Positions 7,355-22,456 of a stretch of 24,923 bases of DNA are shown piece after piece (the stretch's first letter is position 1; the number at the start of each line of letters is the position of its first letter). Position numbers and translations under genes: made by a program. The stretch comes from Phycisphaerae bacterium. GTDB taxonomy: Bacteria; Planctomycetota; Phycisphaerae; UBA1845. The notes below the pieces were generated by a model, which saw only the letters and a program-made list of their open reading frames with translations, was not told the DNA's origin and did no database searches. The stretch is taken from NCBI GenBank assembly GCA_029260055.1, contig JAJDDX010000258.1, positions 1 through 24,923 of the forward strand. The letters are read 5' to 3'.

Positions 7355-9229
7355 ATGAACATACTTTCGGAATGGATGGAAAGGGACCTCACAGCCGCGA
7401 TCAAGGCAGGAGACCTGCCGGCGGCGTTCGAGGTGGACGAGCAAGTACACGAATTGGCGGGGATGCTGGACGCCGGCCGGTTTCCGATTTTGACCGGTGA
7501 GTCCGGTACCGGAAAGACCGCCATCGTGTACGAGCTCATCAGGCGGTCGGCCGCGGGTGACGGATGTGCATGCCTCGCCGGGAGGCGAGTCTTGCAGATC
7601 TCGATCCAGCGGCGGGCAGCCGCGTTGGAGGACGCGTACGAGGTCAGTGCCGAGTTGCAGAAGCTCGCCGACGTGCTGGCAAAGGCCGCGGGGAAGTTCG
7701 CGCTATTCATTCGCGACATCCACTTGGGCTATCAGTACGACCTCGAGGCGCAGCTCAGCGCGCTGGCCTATACCTTCGAGGGACCCGTGATCGGTGAGGG
7801 GCGAACCGCGCCCGTGGAGGCGATGCTCGAACATGACGACAGCCTCCAGCAGCACTACTCGATCGTGAATGTCGAGGAGCCGAGCCTGGAAAGGGCAAGG
7901 CAAATCCTCAACGCCTGGGCACTGACGCGGCAAGACCGCAATGGACAAGCGCTTACGGCAACTGCGATCGAGCAGGCGCTGACGCTGACGCACCGGTTCC
8001 TCGCGCGGAGCCGTTTGCCGCGTAAGGCGATCGACCTGTTGACACAGACAGCCTCCAGGGCCGACCTGGAAGCGACGGTCTCCAGTGCGAACGTGATCGA
8101 GTGCTTCTGCGCGACGCACCGCGTACCGCGTGCGCTGCTCGACCCGACTGTGCCGCTTGACCTTGTCGCGCTGCAGCGGCGCTTCGAGGGGCATGTGCTC
8201 GGGCAGAAGGAGGCGGTGCGCGCCGCGGTCGACGTGATCGGGACCGTCAAGGCGGGCCTGTCGGACGAGAGGCGGCCTTTCGGCGCGTTCCTCTTCGTCG
8301 GGCCGACCGGTGTGGGTAGGACCCACGTCGCTCAGCTTCTGGCGGAGTGCCTGTTCGGTCACAAGGAGCGGTTGGTCCGCCTGAACATGGCGGACATGCA
8401 AGGTGATTACGACGCCTTTACGCTGTTCGGGTACCCGAACGGCGACAACGCCGCGGAAAAGCGCGGCATGTTGACGCTCCGGTTGATGGGGAAGTCCTTT
8501 GCCGTCGTGCTGCTGGACGAGTTCGAGAAGGCTCATCCGACGGTTCACGATCGGTTCCTCCAGTTGATGGACGAGGGAGCCTTCATCAACGGCGCGGGCG
8601 AGACGGTCTCGTGCCGCTCGTTGATCTTGATCGCCACCTCCAACGCGGGGGCTGATGCCCACCGCGGAGAGGCGATGGGTTTCGCGTCGGGTCATCCCGA
8701 GCGCAGGGAAAGCGGGGCACGGACGGCGTTGGGTAAGCAGTTCCGAACGGAGTTGCTCAACCGCTTCGACCGGATCGTGCACTTCATGCCGCTGCGGCGT
8801 CGGGATATCCGAACGATCGCGGTCAGGGAGCTCGAGCGGCTCGTGCAGCGCAGCGGGTTCAAGCACCGCAGGCTCACGCTGGTCGTGGACGGCAAGGTGA
8901 TCGACTGGATCACCCGGCGAGGCTACGACCCCCAGTTCGGGGCCAGGGAGCTGCGGCGCACGATCGAGCGGAACGTCACGACCGCCGTGGCCGACGTGAT
9001 CGTCCGCGAGAACCCCGAGCCAGGTTCGCGCGTGAAGCTGACGGTGCGGGACGGCTGGATCGTCGCGAGTGTGGCACCCGCTGCGAGCACAGGACAGCGG
9101 ACGGCGAGTGTGTCATCGCCCGACGCGGGCGCCGCGCCGATCGACACGCGCCCGGCCGCCCTTAGCGGAAGGAACGGGCGACAGCGCGTCAGTCCGTTCG
9201 GGCAGCGCGACGGCGTTCGGCGCAGCTAA
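7355..9229 (+). CDS. ClpA/ClpB-family double AAA+ ATPase-like protein with degenerate nucleotide-binding motifs; lacks the N-domain and the ClpB middle domain
   Basis: Collinear with ClpB D1 and D2. D1: Walker A GESGTGKT is intact, but Walker B reads ALFIRDIH where ClpB has ILFIDELH. D2: Walker A is GPTGVGRT (Lys to Arg), Walker B VVLLDEFEKAH is intact, sensor-1 reads IATSN, and the Arg-finger/sensor-2 context GARELRR is present. An MGF tripeptide sits where ClpA carries its IGL ClpP-docking loop. The minus ORF 7703..8866 is its shadow. Confidence 0.85.
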   Translation: MNILSEWMERDLTAAIKAGDLPAAFEVDEQVHELAGMLDAGRFPILTGESGTGKTAIVYELIRRSAAGDGCACLAGRRVLQISIQRRAAALEDAYEVSAELQKLADVLAKAAGKFALFIRDIHLGYQYDLEAQLSALAYTFEGPVIGEGRTAPVEAMLEHDDSLQQHYSIVNVEEPSLERARQILNAWALTRQDRNGQALTATAIEQALTLTHRFLARSRLPRKAIDLLTQTASRADLEATVSSANVIECFCATHRVPRALLDPTVPLDLVALQRRFEGHVLGQKEAVRAAVDVIGTVKAGLSDERRPFGAFLFVGPTGVGRTHVAQLLAECLFGHKERLVRLNMADMQGDYDAFTLFGYPNGDNAAEKRGMLTLRLMGKSFAVVLLDEFEKAHPTVHDRFLQLMDEGAFINGAGETVSCRSLILIATSNAGADAHRGEAMGFASGHPERRESGARTALGKQFRTELLNRFDRIVHFMPLRRRDIRTIAVRELERLVQRSGFKHRRLTLVVDGKVIDWITRRGYDPQFGARELRRTIERNVTTAVADVIVRENPEPGSRVKLTVRDGWIVASVAPAASTGQRTASVSSPDAGAAPIDTRPAALSGRNGRQRVSPFGQRDGVRRS

Positions 9230-9682: not shown

Positions 9683-9749
9683 CCGCGGTCATTGCCACCA
9701 CGACGGCGCGACCTATCGACCCGAAGTGGAAACGACTAGGATCAACGTT

Positions 9750-10778
9750 ATGGATATGATCACGATCGACGGATCACACGGCGAAGGCGGCGGGCAGATC
9801 ATCCGATCCTCGCTCGCTCTGTCCCTCGTAACCGGCAAGCCGTTTCGCATCGAGAATGTCCGCGCGGGCCGAAGGAAGCCCGGCCTCAGGCGACAGCACG
9901 TCACCGCAGCCAGAGCAGCCGCCACGGTCGGCTGCGCCCAAGTCGACGGCGCCGAACTCGGCTCATCCGCCCTATCGTTTACGCCGACTGCCGTCTCGCC
10001 GGGCGACTATGAGTTCTCCGTAGGCACTGCCGGCAGTACGACGCTGGTCTTGCAGACCGTGCTGCCCGCCCTGCTCACCGCAAGCGGGCCGTCCACCGTC
10101 GCCGTCGAGGGCGGCACGCACAACCCCTTGGCCCCACCGTTCGACTTCATAGAGAAGTGCTACCTGCCGCTGATCAACCGTATGGGCCCCACGGTCACAG
10201 CCGCACTCGTTCGACCGGGCTTCTTCCCCGCCGGTGGTGGCCGCATCGAAGTGGCGATCGAACCGACCGATCGACTCGAAGGCATCGAACTCATCGAGCG
10301 CGGCGAGATCATCGCACGCCGCGCCACCGCCCTGCTCTCGAACCTGCCCCGACACATCGGCGAGCGCGAACTTCGCGAGATCGACCGCAAGCTCCACCTG
10401 CCTGCCAAGTCGCTCAGAATCGACGAGGTCGCCTCACCCGGTCCGGGCAACGTCGTGCTGATCGAAATCGAATCCCCGCACGTCACCGAAGTGGTCACGG
10501 CGTACGGCAAGGTGGGCGTGTCGGCGGAGGACGTGGCACGCAAAGCTGTCCGCGAGGCAAAGGCCTACATCGACACGGATGTACCCGTCGGCGAGCACCT
10601 CGCTGATCAACTGCTCTTACCGCTGGCACTCGCCGGCCGGGGAGCGTTCCAAACAACGGTGCCATCCAGCCACACGAAGACCCACATCGACGTCATCGCC
10701 AAGTTCCTCGATGTGAAGGTCGACACACGGCAGATCAACGACAGGGTGTGGCAAGTCGAAATCGGCCCGCAACCCTGA
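9750..10778 (+). CDS. rtcA: RNA 3'-terminal phosphate cyclase
   Basis: The N-terminus MDMITIDGSHGEGGGQIIRSSLALSLVTGKPFRIENVRAGRRKPGLRRQH matches the conserved RtcA start ([25 protein letters not shown]...IRAGRAKPGL...QH); the catalytic His is in RRQH. The start is taken at the ATG at 9750 (AGGAT 8 nt upstream); the listed ORF opens at an in-frame GTG at 9726. Confidence 0.85.
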   Translation: MDMITIDGSHGEGGGQIIRSSLALSLVTGKPFRIENVRAGRRKPGLRRQHVTAARAAATVGCAQVDGAELGSSALSFTPTAVSPGDYEFSVGTAGSTTLVLQTVLPALLTASGPSTVAVEGGTHNPLAPPFDFIEKCYLPLINRMGPTVTAALVRPGFFPAGGGRIEVAIEPTDRLEGIELIERGEIIARRATALLSNLPRHIGERELREIDRKLHLPAKSLRIDEVASPGPGNVVLIEIESPHVTEVVTAYGKVGVSAEDVARKAVREAKAYIDTDVPVGEHLADQLLLPLALAGRGAFQTTVPSSHTKTHIDVIAKFLDVKVDTRQINDRVWQVEIGPQP

Positions 10779-16868: not shown

Positions 16869-18809
16869 ATGAGAGAAAAAACGAAGCTCGCTACCCTGTT
16901 GGTCCTGACGGTACTGGGCACGACCGGGCTGTTCTTCTCGCCCGCCGCTGCGTCTGAGCAGCCCGCGCCGGCGGCCGTTGCCCCACAGCCGACCGAGCCC
17001 GTCGTCGTCCGTATCCACGTGCGCGATACCGAACACTTGAACGCCGTCGCCGGCGAACTCGACATCTGGGAGACCCACCCGAACGAGTTGTACGTCGTCG
17101 CGCGTGTGACCCCGGAACAACACCAGTGGCTCGAAGGCCTCGGCTATCGACTGGAAATCGACGGCGACAAGACCGCGGACATCCGAGCCGCCGCCATCGG
17201 CCCGCTCGATCCGCGATTCCACTACTTCGATGACTACCTGACCAACGCCAACGGCCTCTACATCAAGGACACGCTGCAAAGCATCAACGTAGCCCACCCC
17301 GACCTCACCGAGTTGATCGACATCGGCGATGCATGGCTGGCCAACCAGCAGGACGAACATCACCGCGATATTTGGGTCATGCGCATCACGAACGAGGACG
17401 CAGCCTACGGACCGATCGAAAGCAAGCCCGCCTTCTTCCTGTTCGGCACCATCCACGCCCGTGAGGTCGTCATACCCGAACTGGCGACGCGCTACATCAA
17501 ATACCTGACCGAGGGATTCGGCGGCGCCGGCGGCTACGGCGTCGACCCCGATGTCACGTGGCTGGTCAACCACAACGTCGTCCACGTGCTCGTCATGCAG
17601 AACCCGGACGGCCACTGGGTCAACGAACAGGACACCAGCGCCTTCCGCCGCAAGAACAGTAACGACAGCAACCTCTGCGCTAACCCGGCTAACGCGGGCG
17701 TCGACCTGAACCGCAACAGCAGCTTCCTGTGGGGATGTTGCGGAGGCTCGAGCGTTGACCCGTGCAGCCCGACCTATCGTGGCCCCGCGCCCGCCTCTGA
17801 GCCCGAGACCCAGGCCTTCCAGGCCTACTTCGCCTCGGTCATGCAGGACCAGAACGGACCGAACGGTGATGACGAAATCCCGCCGGCTGCTCCGGATGAT
17901 ACGACCGGCATCTTCATCAGCCTCCACGCCTACCAGGATGAAATCTACTGGCCGTGGGGCTTCGACGACTTCGACCCGTCGCCCAATCACGCTCAACTCG
18001 AAACCATCGGGCACAAGTTCGCTTACTACAACAACTACACCCCCGCCGGGACCATCTTTTACGATGTGGACGGCGCCACCGACGACTGGACCTACGGCAA
18101 GTTCGGCATCGCGTCCTACACCTTCGAGGTCGGCCCGACCACCGGCACTTGCCGAGGCTTCTTCCCGCCCTTCGGCTGCATCGACGCCGTCGACGGCATG
18201 CCGCGCAACTTCTGGGCGGAGAACCTCCCGGTCCTTCTCTACGCGCACAAGATCGCAGCCACGCCCTATATGACCGCCTATGGCCCGGATGCAGACAACG
18301 TCGTCGCGCTTCCCGCGTTCGCAACGCCCGGTTTGGTCGTACAACTCAGCGCTCGCGTCGCGGACCACCGATACGTCGGCGACCCGCTGCGCCCCATGGC
18401 GGCAGCCGAGTACTTCATCGACGCACCCGGTACGGACGGCACCGGCACCGCGATGATGCCATCCGACGGCACCTTCGATACGACCAGTGAGCAGGTGCTC
18501 ACCTCGATCAACACGACGGGCCTGAGCAGCGGCCGTCACTACGTCCTGGTCCACGGCCAAAACGACGCCGGCGACTGGGGACCCTTCACAGCCGCCTTCC
18601 TCACCATCGCGGTTCCCGGCGACTTCGACTTTGACGGCACTGTGAACCTCGCCGACCACGCAGTCTTCGCCGCCTGCCTCTCCGGCCCCGACGTAACCAC
18701 TCCCCCACCCGGCTGTTCACCTGCACAGTTCGACGTAGCCGACCTGGACAACGACGACGACGTAGACACCAACGACTTCGCCGCCTTCCAGTCTTTGATT
18801 GGGCAGTAG
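16869..18809 (+). CDS. Secreted M14-family zinc carboxypeptidase with C-terminal dockerin-like Ca-binding repeats
   Basis: Signal peptide MREKTKLATLLVLTVLGTTGLFFSPAAAS. The M14 zinc/catalytic motifs are present: HAREVV (HxxE), NPDG, DLNRN, SLHAYQ (second His ligand) and TFEVG (catalytic Glu). The C-terminus DFDFDGTVNLADHAVFAACLSG...DLDNDDDVDTNDFAAFQ resembles dockerin type I repeats. The minus ORF 16842..18659 is its shadow. Confidence 0.85.
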   Translation: MREKTKLATLLVLTVLGTTGLFFSPAAASEQPAPAAVAPQPTEPVVVRIHVRDTEHLNAVAGELDIWETHPNELYVVARVTPEQHQWLEGLGYRLEIDGDKTADIRAAAIGPLDPRFHYFDDYLTNANGLYIKDTLQSINVAHPDLTELIDIGDAWLANQQDEHHRDIWVMRITNEDAAYGPIESKPAFFLFGTIHAREVVIPELATRYIKYLTEGFGGAGGYGVDPDVTWLVNHNVVHVLVMQNPDGHWVNEQDTSAFRRKNSNDSNLCANPANAGVDLNRNSSFLWGCCGGSSVDPCSPTYRGPAPASEPETQAFQAYFASVMQDQNGPNGDDEIPPAAPDDTTGIFISLHAYQDEIYWPWGFDDFDPSPNHAQLETIGHKFAYYNNYTPAGTIFYDVDGATDDWTYGKFGIASYTFEVGPTTGTCRGFFPPFGCIDAVDGMPRNFWAENLPVLLYAHKIAATPYMTAYGPDADNVVALPAFATPGLVVQLSARVADHRYVGDPLRPMAAAEYFIDAPGTDGTGTAMMPSDGTFDTTSEQVLTSINTTGLSSGRHYVLVHGQNDAGDWGPFTAAFLTIAVPGDFDFDGTVNLADHAVFAACLSGPDVTTPPPGCSPAQFDVADLDNDDDVDTNDFAAFQSLIGQ

Positions 18810-18847: not shown

Positions 18848-18877
18848 GTGGCATGGGCAAACTCGTTTGCCCGTGTT
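18848..18877. repeat. Palindromic repeat family B, second copy
   Basis: GTGGCATGGGCAAACTCGTTTGCCCGTGTT; compare 9387-9416. Confidence 0.65.
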
Positions 18878-19045
18878 GACCCACAGCACCCCCATGTTGC
18901 GCCCCTACCGCGACCGAGCACCTCTCCCGGCCCGGGTGCCACGGACAAGCAGCAGCTTGTCCGTGCGCGAACCACTGGCCTGGGACTGCCCGGATCGACC
19001 AGTCTACACGTCGCATGGCCGGAGTTGCACCCATGCAAGCGTAAG

Positions 19046-19078
19046 TTGCAGGGCAGCGAGTCCTTGGTGTACAATTGT
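19046..19078 (+). promoter_or_regulatory. Near-consensus sigma70 promoter (TTGCAG-18-TACAAT) overlapping an 8-bp palindrome ACAATTGT (possible operator)
   Basis: -35 TTGCAG at 19046-19051, -10 TACAAT at 19070-19075, and the palindrome ACAATTGT at 19071-19078. An AAGGAGG RBS sits at 19130-19136, ahead of the ATG at 19149. Confidence 0.5.
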
Positions 19079-19148
19079 GCGTGCCAGGAACACTTCGAAT
19101 TCGGACGGAAGCGCACACAGGCTGAGCTGCAAGGAGGCAGCGGCAAAC

Positions 19149-19955
19149 ATGGCAAGCACAAACCGCCAGCACCGTAAACAACAGAAGAAACTGAAGAGGC
19201 AGCGGAAACTGAAGGCCGAGGGGCAGAAACTGGCAAGAGAACGTTCAGCCTTCCGGGAGGGTTTAGATTCGTACGTCACTGAATACGAACGGCTCAAACG
19301 TACACCGATCGTCGAGTCGCTAATCGGCATCTACGAACTCGACGACGCAACTTACGGCCTTACGCCCGCTGAGCAACTGGAGCACATCGGACTGACTGAC
19401 CACTCCATCGTCTCTTACAATTCAGACGACAACGGGGAGCCTGATCAACATGATGCGGATCCGAAGGCGGCGGGCTCGACCTCAGCCGTTCGCCTGCCTT
19501 CCGGCGCCATTCGCCCAATTATCTTCCTGAGAAACCGCGTCGTGGTAGACGATGATGGCGAGCAGACCGAAGAAGAGACGGAACAGAATGTAGCCTTCGG
19601 AATTCGGCTCGTTTTGCTGTTGCATGAACTTGGGCATGCTGAAGACATCGCATTAGGCGTCAACTTCGACCACGATCGTCGGACGCTTCAGTTGGTGGAC
19701 GCGGAGGCCTATGCCCACCGATTCGTCTGCCGCGAAACCAAGAAACGCAACTACCGATTGGCCCTGGCACACTATCTTGACGACATCGAAGGAAAGCTCG
19801 AATCGGGAGTTGAGTACGTGCGCCTGGCGGCACAGAAACTCCACGAGGAGATAGACGTACCCCAACTGAAGGAATTCGCCGAGAAGGCGTGGAGTACCCA
19901 CAAGGGAAGAGAGTATTACCTCGCGATGGAACGGCTGAGGAAATCAGCTACGTAA
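19149..19955 (+). CDS. ImmA/IrrE-family (DUF955-like) HExxH zinc metallopeptidase with a strongly basic N-terminal region
   Basis: The HELGH motif lies in the hydrophobic context FGIRLVLLLHELGHAEDIALG. About 25 residues downstream comes VDAEAYAHRF, which fits the family's third-ligand E..A..FA motif. The N-terminus is Lys/Arg-rich: MASTNRQHRKQQKKLKRQRKLKAEGQKLARER. The start is taken at the ATG at 19149 after AAGGAGG; the listed ORF 18819.. extends upstream across the promoter and repeat and is rejected. GC content and third-codon positions are visibly lower than in the flanking genes. Confidence 0.6.
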   Translation: MASTNRQHRKQQKKLKRQRKLKAEGQKLARERSAFREGLDSYVTEYERLKRTPIVESLIGIYELDDATYGLTPAEQLEHIGLTDHSIVSYNSDDNGEPDQHDADPKAAGSTSAVRLPSGAIRPIIFLRNRVVVDDDGEQTEEETEQNVAFGIRLVLLLHELGHAEDIALGVNFDHDRRTLQLVDAEAYAHRFVCRETKKRNYRLALAHYLDDIEGKLESGVEYVRLAAQKLHEEIDVPQLKEFAEKAWSTHKGREYYLAMERLRKSAT

Positions 19956-20009
19956 GACACGCTCGTCGTTGGTGGGATAGGCTCGCTCGCGAACAAGCAA
20001 GTCAACATT

Positions 20010-20795
20010 ATGAAAAAGCGCGAAGCAAGAGAGAGAGTCGAACGACAGCTAAAGGCCTTCCAACGGCTGTCTGGAGGCGGGATAGATACAGCTGAATTCA
20101 AGAAATGGAGACGTGATACAGTCCTGGCGATTGAACATGTTTTTGGCAAGGAAACGCGGCATGTGGGCGACTTCACGGGCATCCAATGGACGCCCAGTTC
20201 AGCCGTATTTGATCCCGGCCCCGCGTATGCGAAAGTGTACTCGGCTGGAGTGCAAAGCGTAAATGCGGTCCTCAGGTCGATGATTGATGAGATCGACGAG
20301 TACTGGGACGACCGAGCCGGCCAGCCGAGCGCCGACGCCGCGTCAGCCGTGGTGGCCCTGTGCGACCGATTCCATCTCGTCGCCCGCCAACTGAGATCTC
20401 GACACGATAGCCGAGCTACCCTCGAGGTTGAAGATGAGTACGACGTTCAGGATCTCCTGCATGCTCTGCTGAAAACCAGCTTCGATGATGTCAGGGCGGA
20501 AGAGTGGACGCCGAGTTATGCCGGGAAATCGGCAAGGGTCGATTTCCTCTTGAAGGAATCCAAGCTTGTCATCGAAACTAAGAAGACCAGCAAATCCCTT
20601 GGAGTGAAAGGCATAGGCGACCAACTGCTCGTAGACATCATGCGCTACAAGAGCCATCCTGACTGTGGTCGGCTGATTTGTTTCGTCTATGATCCAGAAG
20701 GGCGCATTGGCAACCCCAAGAGTATCGAAACTGACTTGACAGGAACGCACGATGATCTGGATGTGTTGGTCATCGTCGCACCGAAGGGTATGTAA
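20010..20795 (+). CDS. PD-(D/E)xK nuclease-fold protein (predicted) with an N-terminal helical domain of unknown function
   Basis: The C-terminal half shows the restriction-endonuclease-like core order: an acidic helix (LEVEDEYDVQDLLHALL), then a strand carrying Asp (ARVDFLL), then about 10 residues later E-x-K (LVIETKK), then a hydrophobic strand (RLICFVYDP). It is lower-GC like its upstream neighbour and lies 55 bp downstream of it on the same strand. Confidence 0.5.
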   Translation: MKKREARERVERQLKAFQRLSGGGIDTAEFKKWRRDTVLAIEHVFGKETRHVGDFTGIQWTPSSAVFDPGPAYAKVYSAGVQSVNAVLRSMIDEIDEYWDDRAGQPSADAASAVVALCDRFHLVARQLRSRHDSRATLEVEDEYDVQDLLHALLKTSFDDVRAEEWTPSYAGKSARVDFLLKESKLVIETKKTSKSLGVKGIGDQLLVDIMRYKSHPDCGRLICFVYDPEGRIGNPKSIETDLTGTHDDLDVLVIVAPKGM

Positions 20796-20956
20796 GGCAC
20801 GTTACCGAATCGCGCCACTTCGCCAGACTAGCCGGCGGCGCCCGGCCTTGAGTTAGGCCCCAGAAACGGCGATTCCTCGCCCAGCTTTTCCTTGCCCCCG
20901 CCCGCCCGAACCTGCTACCATACATACTTCATCCCATCTCTTGAGGGAGAGAAGCC

Positions 20957-22456
20957 ATGTCGAACTGCAAGCTGCTTTCAATCGCAATTGCCTGTGTGCT
21001 GATCACCACGACCGCTCGCGCCGGTGGCACCACATACGTCGACGCTGACGCCACCGGAGCCGCGCAAGACGGCTCGAGCTGGTGTGACGCCTACCTCACG
21101 CTGCAAGACGCGCTCGCCTCAGCCGGCGCGGGCGACAACATCCGGATCGCCAATGGCATCTACCAACCCGACCAGGGCGGAACCGCCACGCCGGGCAGCC
21201 GATTCGAAAGCTTCGTGCTTATCGAAGGCGTCGCCATCAAGGGCGGCTACGCCGGTTGCGGGGCACCCGACCCTAACGAGCGAGACCTCATCGCCCACGA
21301 GACCGTCCTTTCCGGCGACTTAACCGGTAACGACGGTCCCGACTTCGCAAACTACGCCGAGAACAGTTACCACGTCGTCACCGCGACCGCCGTCACCCCG
21401 GCCGCGAAAATCGACGGCGTGACCATCAGTTCCGGCAACGCCGACGACAACGCCATCCCCCACGACGCCGGCGGCGGCATGCGGAACAACCAGGCAAGTC
21501 CGGGCGTGATCGAATGCACCTTCAGCGCCAACTCAGCCGTCTGGGGCGGCGGCATGGAGAACTTCGTCAATTCCAATCCGATGGTCTATGGCTGTAAGTT
21601 CGAGGCCAACCGGGCGACGTTCCGCGGCGGCGGGCTGCACAACAACGCCTCGAGCCCGACGGTCCTGCAAAGCGACTTCATCGACAACACGGCCTACAAC
21701 TCCGGCGGCGGCATGCGTAGCTTCAACTTCAGTGCCCCGTTCGTGTCACTCTGCCGGTTCATCGGCAACACGGCTGAGTTCGGCGCCGGCGTGGTCTGCG
21801 ACGAGACTTTCGGCGTCGTCGCCAACACCGTCTTCACCGGCAACACGGCAGAGGGCACCAGCGGGGCCTTTCACAACTGGCTGTCCAGCCCGGTCATCAC
21901 CAACTGCACCTTCAGCTACAACACCGGCAGCGCCGGCGGCGGCATCTTCAGCACCCACGACAGCTTCCCCGAGATCACCAACTGCATCCTCTGGCAAAAC
22001 AGCGACGCGAGCGGCATGAACGAATCCGCTCAGATCTTCTCGCAGGCCGGCTCCGTGCCCGTCGTCAACCACTCCTGCGTGCAGGGCTGGACGGGCACGC
22101 TCGGCGGAACCGGCAACTTCGGCGACGACCCGTTGCTGCTCGACGCGGACGGCCCCGACGATGCACCCGGCACAGAGGACGACAACCTGCGCCTGATCCC
22201 CGGATCACCCTGCATTGACGCCGGCGACAGCACAGCCGCCGTCGGCTCGGTCGACCTCGATAACAACCCGCGCATCATCGACGGCGACGGTGACGACGTA
22301 GCCGTCATCGACATCGGCGCCTACGAAGCCCCACCGATCCCCGAGGCCATCCCAACCGTGTCCACCTGGGGGCTTTTCATCACAACGCTACTAGGCTTCG
22401 TCGCCTTCACGATCGCGACACACGGACGAAGGCGCCTGAGCGCAACCACCGCCTAA
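20957..22456 (+). CDS. Secreted parallel beta-helix protein with Pmp-type (FxxN...GGA[ILV]) repeats and an IPTL-CTERM-like C-terminal sorting signal
   Basis: Signal peptide MSNCKLLSIAIACVLITTTARA. At least six FxxN / GGG[MLIF] repeat pairs are present (FSANSAVWGGGM, FEANRATFRGGGL, FIDNTAYNSGGGM, FIGNTAEFGAGVV, FTGNTAEGTSGAF, FSYNTGSAGGGIF). The C-terminus IPTVSTWGLFITTLLGFVAFTIATHGRRRL has a motif, a TM helix and an Arg cluster. GAGGGAGAG RBS. Confidence 0.8.
   Translation: MSNCKLLSIAIACVLITTTARAGGTTYVDADATGAAQDGSSWCDAYLTLQDALASAGAGDNIRIANGIYQPDQGGTATPGSRFESFVLIEGVAIKGGYAGCGAPDPNERDLIAHETVLSGDLTGNDGPDFANYAENSYHVVTATAVTPAAKIDGVTISSGNADDNAIPHDAGGGMRNNQASPGVIECTFSANSAVWGGGMENFVNSNPMVYGCKFEANRATFRGGGLHNNASSPTVLQSDFIDNTAYNSGGGMRSFNFSAPFVSLCRFIGNTAEFGAGVVCDETFGVVANTVFTGNTAEGTSGAFHNWLSSPVITNCTFSYNTGSAGGGIFSTHDSFPEITNCILWQNSDASGMNESAQIFSQAGSVPVVNHSCVQGWTGTLGGTGNFGDDPLLLDADGPDDAPGTEDDNLRLIPGSPCIDAGDSTAAVGSVDLDNNPRIIDGDGDDVAVIDIGAYEAPPIPEAIPTVSTWGLFITTLLGFVAFTIATHGRRRLSATTA

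Follow-up and report, generated by a model that had tools for sequence, protein, structure and literature searches.

A low-GC islet in a Phycisphaerae genome holds a zincin-like protein of an undescribed family and a stand-alone PD-(D/E)xK nuclease, probably as independent genes

Results

An islet of atypical composition

We analyzed a contig of 24,923 nucleotides (nt) from a Phycisphaerae bacterium (JAJDDX010000258.1, assembly GCA_029260055.1), the whole of which we call the window. Our subject is a pair of adjacent open reading frames (ORFs) on the same strand, separated by a spacer of 54 nt. ORF1 encodes an HExxH protein of 268 amino acids (aa) and ORF2 a PD-(D/E)xK nuclease protein of 261 aa (Table 1). 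An earlier note had singled out these two co-directional ORFs, at coordinates that were borne out, as a candidate two-gene defense or abortive-infection module. Our analysis favors a different organization, in which ORF1 and ORF2 are probably two independent accessory genes within one acquired islet.

The two genes stand apart from the rest of the window in base composition. Between roughly 19.0 and 20.8 kb, windowed guanine-cytosine (GC) content is 0.54–0.56, compared to 0.62–0.67 in both flanks. At a resolution of 200 nt, it falls from 0.64–0.69 to 0.49–0.58, with a local value of 0.62 at 20200–20499, and recovers past ~20,800. The genes themselves have a GC content of 0.551 (ORF1) and 0.543 (ORF2). 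At third codon positions (GC3), the values are 0.64 and 0.61, more than 5 standard deviations below the 14 other genes of the window (0.806 ± 0.029, minimum 0.76). An index resembling the codon adaptation index, with those 14 genes as its reference, gives 0.53 for ORF1 and 0.50 for ORF2, compared to 0.62–0.75 for the others. The low GC content and atypical codons described in the earlier note, unlike those of any neighboring gene, are evident in these figures.

Such a shift could also arise in native genes, through their amino-acid content or through weak expression. Both proteins are rich in lysine, glutamate, and aspartate, which lowers GC content at first and second codon positions, and the borders of the islet lack signs of mobility: a search of the window for flanking direct repeats, tRNA genes, integrases, and Rfam elements found none at its ends. 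Against this explanation, the shift is greatest at silent third positions, the ORF2 family is demonstrably mobile, and members of the ORF1 family are GC-poor for their own loci, as described below. We regard an origin without transfer as very unlikely. The islet spans ~1.8 kb of foreign base composition and is consistent with the horizontal acquisition that the earlier note proposed.

Table 1. Positions of the islet, its two genes, and associated features in the window
Feature	Coordinates	Strand	Remarks
Low-GC/low-GC3 islet with both genes	19000..20800, edges approximate	.	GC drop
Promoter-like hexamers TTGCAG-18 nt-TACAAT	19046..19075	+	Statistically unremarkable
Shine-Dalgarno-like AAGGAGG	19131..19137	+	11 nt before the ORF1 ATG, read from sequence
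ORF1, basic N-terminal helix (residues 2-37), then zincin-like HExxH domain	19149..19955	+	268 aa
HELGHAED, putative metal-binding/catalytic motif: H159, E160, H163, D166	19623..19646	+	Invariant, n=61; HELGH is residues 159-163, nt 19623-19637
AEAYAH: A185, E186, A189, H190	19701..19718	+	E186 is the putative third metal ligand
ORF2, helical N-domain and PF18742 nuclease domain	20010..20795	+	261 aa
ORF2 N-terminal helical bundle, residues 1 to ~113	20010..20348	+	Conserved; homologous to the PDC-S35 N-terminus
ORF2 nuclease domain PF18742, residues 114-259	20349..20786	+	
ORF2 catalytic residues	D178 20541-20543; E189 20574-20576; K191 20580-20582	+	

ORF1 represents an undescribed family of HExxH proteins

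The N-terminus of ORF1 is basic, with 13 lysine or arginine residues among the first 33, in agreement with the Lys/Arg-rich N-terminus described previously. Further downstream lies an HExxH motif. Across 61 aligned members of the family, H159, E160, H163, D166, and E186 are invariant. Y42, L157, G162, N172, A185, A189, and H190 are nearly so, with A185, A189, and H190 retained in at least 90% of the sequences. The resulting family signature is L-x-HExGH-xx-D ... AExxAH. By analogy with the gluzincins, E186 would serve as a metal ligand.

An AlphaFold2 model of ORF1, built on 17 sequences, has a predicted local distance difference test (pLDDT) score of 80 and a predicted template modeling (pTM) score of 0.75. 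Its elements are an N-terminal helix that is long and basic, a sheet of four strands, the HExxH helix (residues 142–169), a helix carrying E186 and H190 (residues 182–199), and four more helices. The HELGHAED residues lie at the C-terminal end of helix 142–169, and the C-terminal part is all-helical. Overall, the predicted fold is weakly zincin-like.

ORF1 itself matched nothing in Pfam (at E ≤ 1, bar noise), NCBIfam, PADLOC, or PHROGs. Scanning all 61 members against Pfam returned scattered noise only: Peptidase_M91 in three members (best E 0.015), and DUF6782 and MPTase-PolyVal in one member each (E > 0.04). Sequence searches of the PDB with profiles made from 6 and 61 family sequences found nothing, and neither did Foldseek with the ORF1 model against the PDB at E ≤ 0.001. 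Since the signature is invariant and no library recognizes the protein, ORF1 is reasonably regarded as a zincin-like HExxH protein of a new family. We also considered domain fusions in three longer members (P0138, P0194, and P0128) and rejected them. Their additional length appears to reflect mis-called starts or read-through of an upstream ORF, and in each an internal methionine precedes the basic stretch.

The family is rare and nearly confined to Planctomycetota. A word-indexed search of 5.8 billion proteins, which misses distant relatives, found five relatives of ORF1. An exhaustive profile search of 1.84 billion representatives recovered 220 clusters at E ≤ 1e-3, 42 of them at E ≤ 1e-30, and nearly all members are 230–290 aa long. 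The carriers are metagenome-assembled genomes of Planctomycetota (Planctomycetia, Gemmataceae, Planctomycetales, Phycisphaerales, and Pirellulaceae), plus one bin labeled Paceibacterota. Annotated phage and plasmid collections contained no match, and the 2.9 million viral contigs of IMG/VR yielded a single partial relative. In 17 of the 18 loci with defined coordinates for the family gene, window included, this gene has a lower GC content than the rest of its locus.

ORF2 belongs to a widespread and mobile nuclease family

The identity of ORF2 is much clearer. Pfam family PF18742 (REase_DpnII-MboI) aligns to residues 114–259 over profile positions 3–150 of 150, with an E-value of 4.5e-56 and a score of 189 bits against a cut-off of 27. 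The protein also matches phrog_29450 of PHROGs over its full length (1e-73). Among 48 diverse homologs, which share a mean column identity of 57% over the full length, the EDEYDVQD helix (residues 141–148) and D178, E189, and K191 are invariant. The predicted fold is PD-(D/E)xK, with CdiA-CT and BamHI as the top matches and BstYI and BglII also ranking high. By its domain, its intact D-ExK site, and its core fold, ORF2 is a PD-(D/E)xK nuclease, as the earlier note had surmised. It adds one more protein to a nuclease domain family that is already known, though its stand-alone architecture is uncharacterized.

In the deposited annotation, ORF2 begins at a GTG at 20163 and has only 210 aa. Because homologs align from residue 1 of the longer ATG ORF, we conclude that the public annotation truncates a conserved N-terminal domain. 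W33, F45, and H51, all invariant in the family, lie in the part lost from the deposited call. The earlier note had left this domain without an assignment, and it proved homologous to the N-terminus of PDC-S35, a PADLOC candidate. Three Aga_Helical-REase models of PADLOC match the nuclease domain at 1.6e-31 to 3.4e-13, and all 48 aligned family members match both Aga_Helical-REase models and PDC-S35. The sole sequence match in the PDB is EcbAgaN (23wq; E 0.01, residues 135–192).

The name of the Pfam family and the presence of the type II enzymes BamHI, BstYI, and BglII among the best fold matches raise the question of whether ORF2 is a DpnII/MboI-like endonuclease of a type II restriction-modification system. 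This is unlikely, and in our judgment extremely so, because no methyltransferase accompanies the gene in the window or in the sampled contexts of its homologs, and the window does not avoid GATC (167 sites observed, 172 expected under a Markov model). Both the helical domain conserved at the N-terminus and the relationship to bAgaN suggest instead an effector nuclease without sequence specificity.

The ORF2 family comprises more than 4,300 clusters at 90% identity, with 100% coverage of the 261 aa and a length of ~262 aa in nearly all members. Homologs reside on 208 plasmids, of which 161 are conjugative. In IMG/VR, 38 contigs carry one; the GenBank phage set held no match. Four contexts, metagenomic or genomic, show the gene on its own amid variable genes: among RHS/immunity cassettes, in an integrase island, next to acetyltransferase and immunity-like genes of Paenibacillus, and adjoining a TIR protein. 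Upstream of the nearest relative (65% identity, locus L080) is an unrelated protein that has an XRE helix-turn-helix (HTH) domain at its C-terminus and no HExxH; tested as a possible ORF1-type or HExxH protein, it was rejected. The second-nearest relative (62% identity) has no near neighbor at all. An all-against-all comparison of neighbors across 25 representative contexts found no shared partner beyond closely related phages. Over these ~25 contexts, the ORF2 family is stand-alone, demonstrably mobile, and without a conserved partner.

Several homologs sit on enterobacterial plasmids. On IncX1 plasmids of E. coli and Salmonella (e.g., L039, NZ_CP115825.1), the gene has a resolvase on one side and a convergent "Abi family protein" on the other. 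On a K. pneumoniae plasmid (L040, NZ_CP132684.1), it occupies an inovirus-like block with Zot, a pII/X replication protein, and a GspD-like secretin. The enterobacterial plasmid homologs carry the annotation "hypothetical protein" or, in error, "malate dehydrogenase." A literature search on REase_DpnII-MboI and PDC-S35 found no papers.

The two families do not occur together elsewhere

The earlier note read the two genes as a single unit, a peptidase sensor coupled to a nuclease. We searched the six-frame ORFs of every retrieved locus with hidden Markov models (HMMs) of both families. None of the 23 other distinct ORF1-family loci contains an ORF2-type gene. Conversely, an ORF1-type gene is absent from all of the ~25 ORF2 contexts, including those of the two nearest relatives. 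The only other locus with both genes (L041) proved to be this very sequence, assembled a second time. Furthermore, the ORF2 family thrives in phyla and on replicons that lack the ORF1 family. Because, among the loci sampled, the genes are adjacent in this genome only, ORF1 and ORF2 are not upheld as a new two-gene defense system, and the sensor-nuclease unit finds no support. What survives of the proposed defense or abortive-infection module is the company that each family keeps, since both occur amid conflict or mobile genes.

Genes next to the ORF1 family

A co-directional gene starts within ~100 nt downstream of the ORF1-family gene in 12 of the 16 loci with enough flanking sequence, window included. 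One of the remaining four has a co-directional gene at a distance of 279 nt, and three have a convergent neighbor. Where gene calls were not supplied, downstream starts are longest-ORF calls.

The downstream genes differ from locus to locus. In the window, the gene encodes the PF18742 nuclease, while in L002 it encodes a NACHT/HEAT protein of 1,547 aa and in L018 an AbiZ-like DUF6161 protein (PADLOC AbiZ at 1.8e-18). An unclassified 313-aa gene intervenes in L023 before a 660-aa protein containing DUF4365, and in L030 an HNH nuclease gene follows within ~100 nt of a 92-aa ORF. Elsewhere, the downstream gene encodes a DUF2293 protein (L022), a DnaJ-type zinc finger protein (L026), a MauJ-domain protein (L033), or a hydrolase fragment (L016).

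Some of these loci have further features. In L016 (2825–7352; also L017 and L021), the ORF1-family gene P0273 has a Pycsar-like cluster directly before it and a short alpha/beta-hydrolase-like ORF after it. This cluster encodes a Guanylate_cyc protein of 520 aa, a SEC-C protein of 191 aa, and a 306-aa protein with cNMP_binding and CAP12-PCTIR_TIR domains. A homolog of the short hydrolase-like ORF appears in L028 on the opposite side of the ORF1-type gene. L002 (6841–11484) and L003 (7405–12000, minus strand) each encode a protein of ~1,540 aa that combines NACHT-like and HEAT regions; the two are homologous, at 30% identity over their full length. Both adjoin the ORF1-family gene, co-directionally in L002 and convergently in L003, and the ORF1-family genes of these two loci are only ~40% identical.

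Two gene pairs recur upstream. One (L002 2506–5245, L022 2327–5078) encodes proteins of 435/450 aa, with a weak HNH_2 match, and 487/534 aa. The other (L002 839–2421, L016 1223–2631) encodes an XRE-HTH protein and a protein of 333–360 aa. These pairs are 45–60% identical between loci, compared to only 29–32% for the ORF1-type genes found there. The picture is of a fast-evolving or often exchanged gene within variable, conflict-rich islands.

Dedicated pair, modular system, or independent genes

Some features of the islet would suit a dedicated two-gene system, in which the ORF1 peptidase senses a signal and gates or activates the ORF2 nuclease as its effector. The genes are adjacent and on the same strand, no terminator-like site lies in the 54-nt spacer, and ORF1 is the only one of the two with a good Shine-Dalgarno-like site. 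They also share their atypical composition, and CapP/CapH offers a precedent for a peptidase that gates immune operons (bioRxiv 10.1101/2022.04.27.489752). The distribution of the two families argues otherwise: they do not co-occur in the other loci and contexts described above, and the ORF2 family lives alone on plasmids, prophages, and chromosomes of many phyla that lack the ORF1 family. Moreover, ORF1 is not of the M78/CapP type by HMM or fold, and no HTH substrate is found nearby. We therefore doubt that the pair is dedicated and judge the idea quite unlikely.

A second possibility concerns the ORF1 family as a whole. It might be the constant part of a modular system of planctomycetes, in which the effector encoded downstream can be exchanged; the PF18742 nuclease would be the one captured here. 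In its strongest form, the family would be an undescribed, defense-associated group of zincin peptidases. The N-terminal helix would sense nucleic acid, and the peptidase would then license the swapped effectors by proteolysis. These might include the PF18742 nuclease here and an HNH nuclease, a DUF4365 protein, an AbiZ-like protein, or a NACHT/HEAT NTPase elsewhere. The close co-directional neighbors, whose identity changes with the locus, are in keeping with this idea, as are the homologous NACHT/HEAT giant beside a 40%-diverged relative in L003 and the family member embedded in a Pycsar-like cluster.

The same neighborhoods also speak against a modular system. Neighboring bacterial genes are commonly co-directional, and the 13 of 16 observed here are not clearly above that background. 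Three loci have no co-directional gene downstream, the giant of L003 is convergent, and DUF2293, the DnaJ-type zinc finger, and the hydrolase fragment do not resemble effectors. In addition, the same effectors occur elsewhere without an ORF1-type gene, and clustering in defense islands could by itself yield such a pattern. We consider both the modular arrangement and its licensing mechanism unlikely, with a modest prospect that the ORF1 family will prove more interesting.

On balance, we favor two independent accessory genes, which we think probable. Several observations weigh against that view. The genes are co-directional, closely spaced without an intervening terminator-like site, and almost identical in composition, so they were probably acquired or retained together, and they may be co-transcribed and functionally linked locally. 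Effector-like genes often lie close behind ORF1-family genes, and the peptidase could work with its neighbor. A literature search found no experiment on either family, and a stand-alone defense role for ORF2-type proteins is that of a candidate. Finally, our neighborhood samples are modest and include many short metagenomic contigs.

Expression signals and surrounding genes

The earlier note described a near-canonical and otherwise rare sigma70 promoter ahead of ORF1. The hexamers in question match the sigma-70 consensus, which may not be that of this phylum, at 8 of 12 positions, with 3 of 6 in the −35 hexamer, and a promoter scan of the window did not call them. Sites as good or better number 10 in the window, compared to 22 ± 5 in composition-preserving shuffles. 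Since such sites are no more common than in shuffled sequence, the hexamer match alone carries no weight. A promoter could lie there, 73 nt ahead of the ORF1 start codon and where GC content changes, but the location proves nothing. The palindrome to which meaning had been attached, ACAATTGT (19071–19078), is one of 128 8-bp palindromes in the window, where 125 ± 10 are expected. A search for intrinsic terminators around the islet found nothing meaningful.

Other genes of the window encode a hydantoinase, a 2-oxoacid:ferredoxin oxidoreductase, a CN-hydrolase, a ClpB-like AAA+ protein, RtcA, an SPFH protein, and an M14 carboxypeptidase. The islet is surrounded by ordinary metabolic, housekeeping, or secreted-protein genes of a probable planctomycete. 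Among the 12 window proteins scanned with PADLOC, the sole match is a generic AAA+ ATPase domain more than 9 kb from the islet. This domain belongs to the ClpB-like double AAA+ protein (AAA_2 and ClpB_D2-small; 7355–9229) and matches DolB and PDC-M37B. The gene for RtcA, an RNA 3'-phosphate cyclase, follows ~500 nt downstream (9726–10778).

Both genes that flank the islet look like those of secreted or surface proteins, and the proteins are present on one contig only. On the left, the M14 carboxypeptidase (16869–18809) has a signal-peptide-like N-terminus and Asp-rich, dockerin-like C-terminal repeats. Just 3' of its gene are two hairpins (18852–18875 and 18940–18965), each with 11-nt arms. 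Their arms are 91% and 100% complementary, their loops are 2 and 4 nt long, and a T-run is absent from both. Either a terminator or a repeat element could explain them. On the right, a 499-aa protein (20957–22456) has no Pfam match and ends in IPTVSTWG, a hydrophobic helix, and RRR. We take this C-terminus to resemble an IPTL-CTERM-type sorting signal.

Discussion

The proposal that prompted this analysis joined ORF1 and ORF2 into one system. Two results tell against it, namely the absence of a DUF955 match and the absence of co-occurrence elsewhere. Since the pair is not upheld as a system, follow-up effort on the pair as such can be saved, and each gene deserves attention in its own right. 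The combination of a helical domain with PF18742 is very widespread and highly conserved, and it is found on clinically relevant IncX1 and other enterobacterial plasmids and on prophages. To our knowledge, almost nothing is known about immunity in Planctomycetota. The ORF1 family offers a starting point: it belongs to a known superfamily but is itself undescribed, is missing from all the libraries we searched, and lies in conflict-gene neighborhoods.

ORF1 compared with known zincins

The earlier note assigned ORF1 to the ImmA/IrrE-type metallopeptidases on the basis of its HELGH motif. The conserved HExxH signature upholds part of that claim, and the family assignment does not stand. ImmA, IrrE, and CapP (Peptidase_M78, PF06114, formerly DUF955; COG2856) share with ORF1 an HExxH motif and a glutamate on the next helix, so that the CapP ligands H96, H100, and E129 would correspond to H159, H163, and E186. 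This arrangement is found in many gluzincin families and is not specific to M78. CapP-type proteins and ORF1 are also both cytoplasmic and both near immune genes. However, none of the 61 ORF1-family members matches Peptidase_M78 at E ≤ 0.1, and ORF1 has no HTH-like linker or GAF domain but a basic N-terminal helix instead. No HTH domain was found among the window genes scanned, and in other ORF1-family loci HTH genes lie 0.5–4 kb away, inconsistently. As an ImmA/IrrE/CapP protein, ORF1 thus fails on HMM, fold ranking, domain architecture, and the absent XRE partner.

SprT/Spartan and ArdC-type zincins, which are DNA-associated metalloproteases, also differ from ORF1. They carry HExxHx5H with three histidine ligands, whereas ORF1 has HExxHxxD plus a glutamate. 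They have no sequence similarity to ORF1, Foldseek does not connect them, and ORF1 lacks plasmid and phage matches.

Because all motif residues are invariant, we predict that ORF1 is most likely an active metallopeptidase. It would be a cytoplasmic zinc enzyme, with the HExxH motif, a second-shell aspartate, and the glutamate on the following helix forming the site. The Lys/Arg-rich N-terminal helix may tether it to nucleic acid, by analogy with Spartan, ArdC, and CapP, which is stimulated by single-stranded DNA.

ORF2 compared with known nuclease systems

Detocs is a three-gene phosphorelay (two-component-like) system. It has a nuclease domain in common with ORF2, since PF18742 appears among the alternative effector domains of its variants (bioRxiv 10.1101/2023.01.24.525353). 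It differs in its partners, since no Detocs-type partner genes flank ORF2.

PDC-S35, a phage-defense candidate from guilt-by-embedding, resembles ORF2 in its N-terminal domain and in size. The N-terminal ~100 residues are homologous in 48 of 48 ORF2-family members (best E 1.1e-15), and its profile of 264 positions is close to ORF2 in length. However, only residues 1–102 of ORF2 align, to profile positions 1–102 of 264, and there is no full-length match. Because the N-domain alone matches, the C-terminal domain of PDC-S35 is evidently different from that of ORF2. By its number, PDC-S35 is among 145 PDC candidates, all untested according to the authors who proposed them (bioRxiv 10.1101/2024.01.29.577857).

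Another parallel is bAgaN, the nuclease effector of the long-B Argonaute system BPAN. Its PD-(D/E)xK domain is homologous to that of ORF2, matching over the helix and the D-ExK core, and both proteins have two domains, with a helical N-domain followed by the nuclease. They differ in length (390 aa for bAgaN, 261 aa for ORF2). They also differ in company. An adjoining long-B Argonaute is a feature of BPAN, and no PIWI/Argonaute gene occurs among the window genes or the neighbors of ORF2 homologs. The N-domain of ORF2 is not the Aga helical domain, because the HMM alignment spans only residues 85–260. In EcbAgaN, the C-terminal D-EVK nuclease domain is toxic alone and the N-domain autoinhibits it. 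The protein remains an autoinhibited dimer until target-bound Argonaute assembles the active octamer (PMC13535254; PMC10620215).

By analogy with EcbAgaN, and from its genomic company, ORF2 is most likely a self-contained effector whose N-terminal helical domain would hold the nuclease autoinhibited until a trigger arrives. Once released, the nuclease would degrade DNA non-specifically. ORF2-type proteins would then be single-gene candidates for abortive infection, exclusion, or defense, carried by plasmids and prophages. Such a protein is a cheap candidate module to pursue, and its nuclease domain has a mechanistic precedent in bAgaN.

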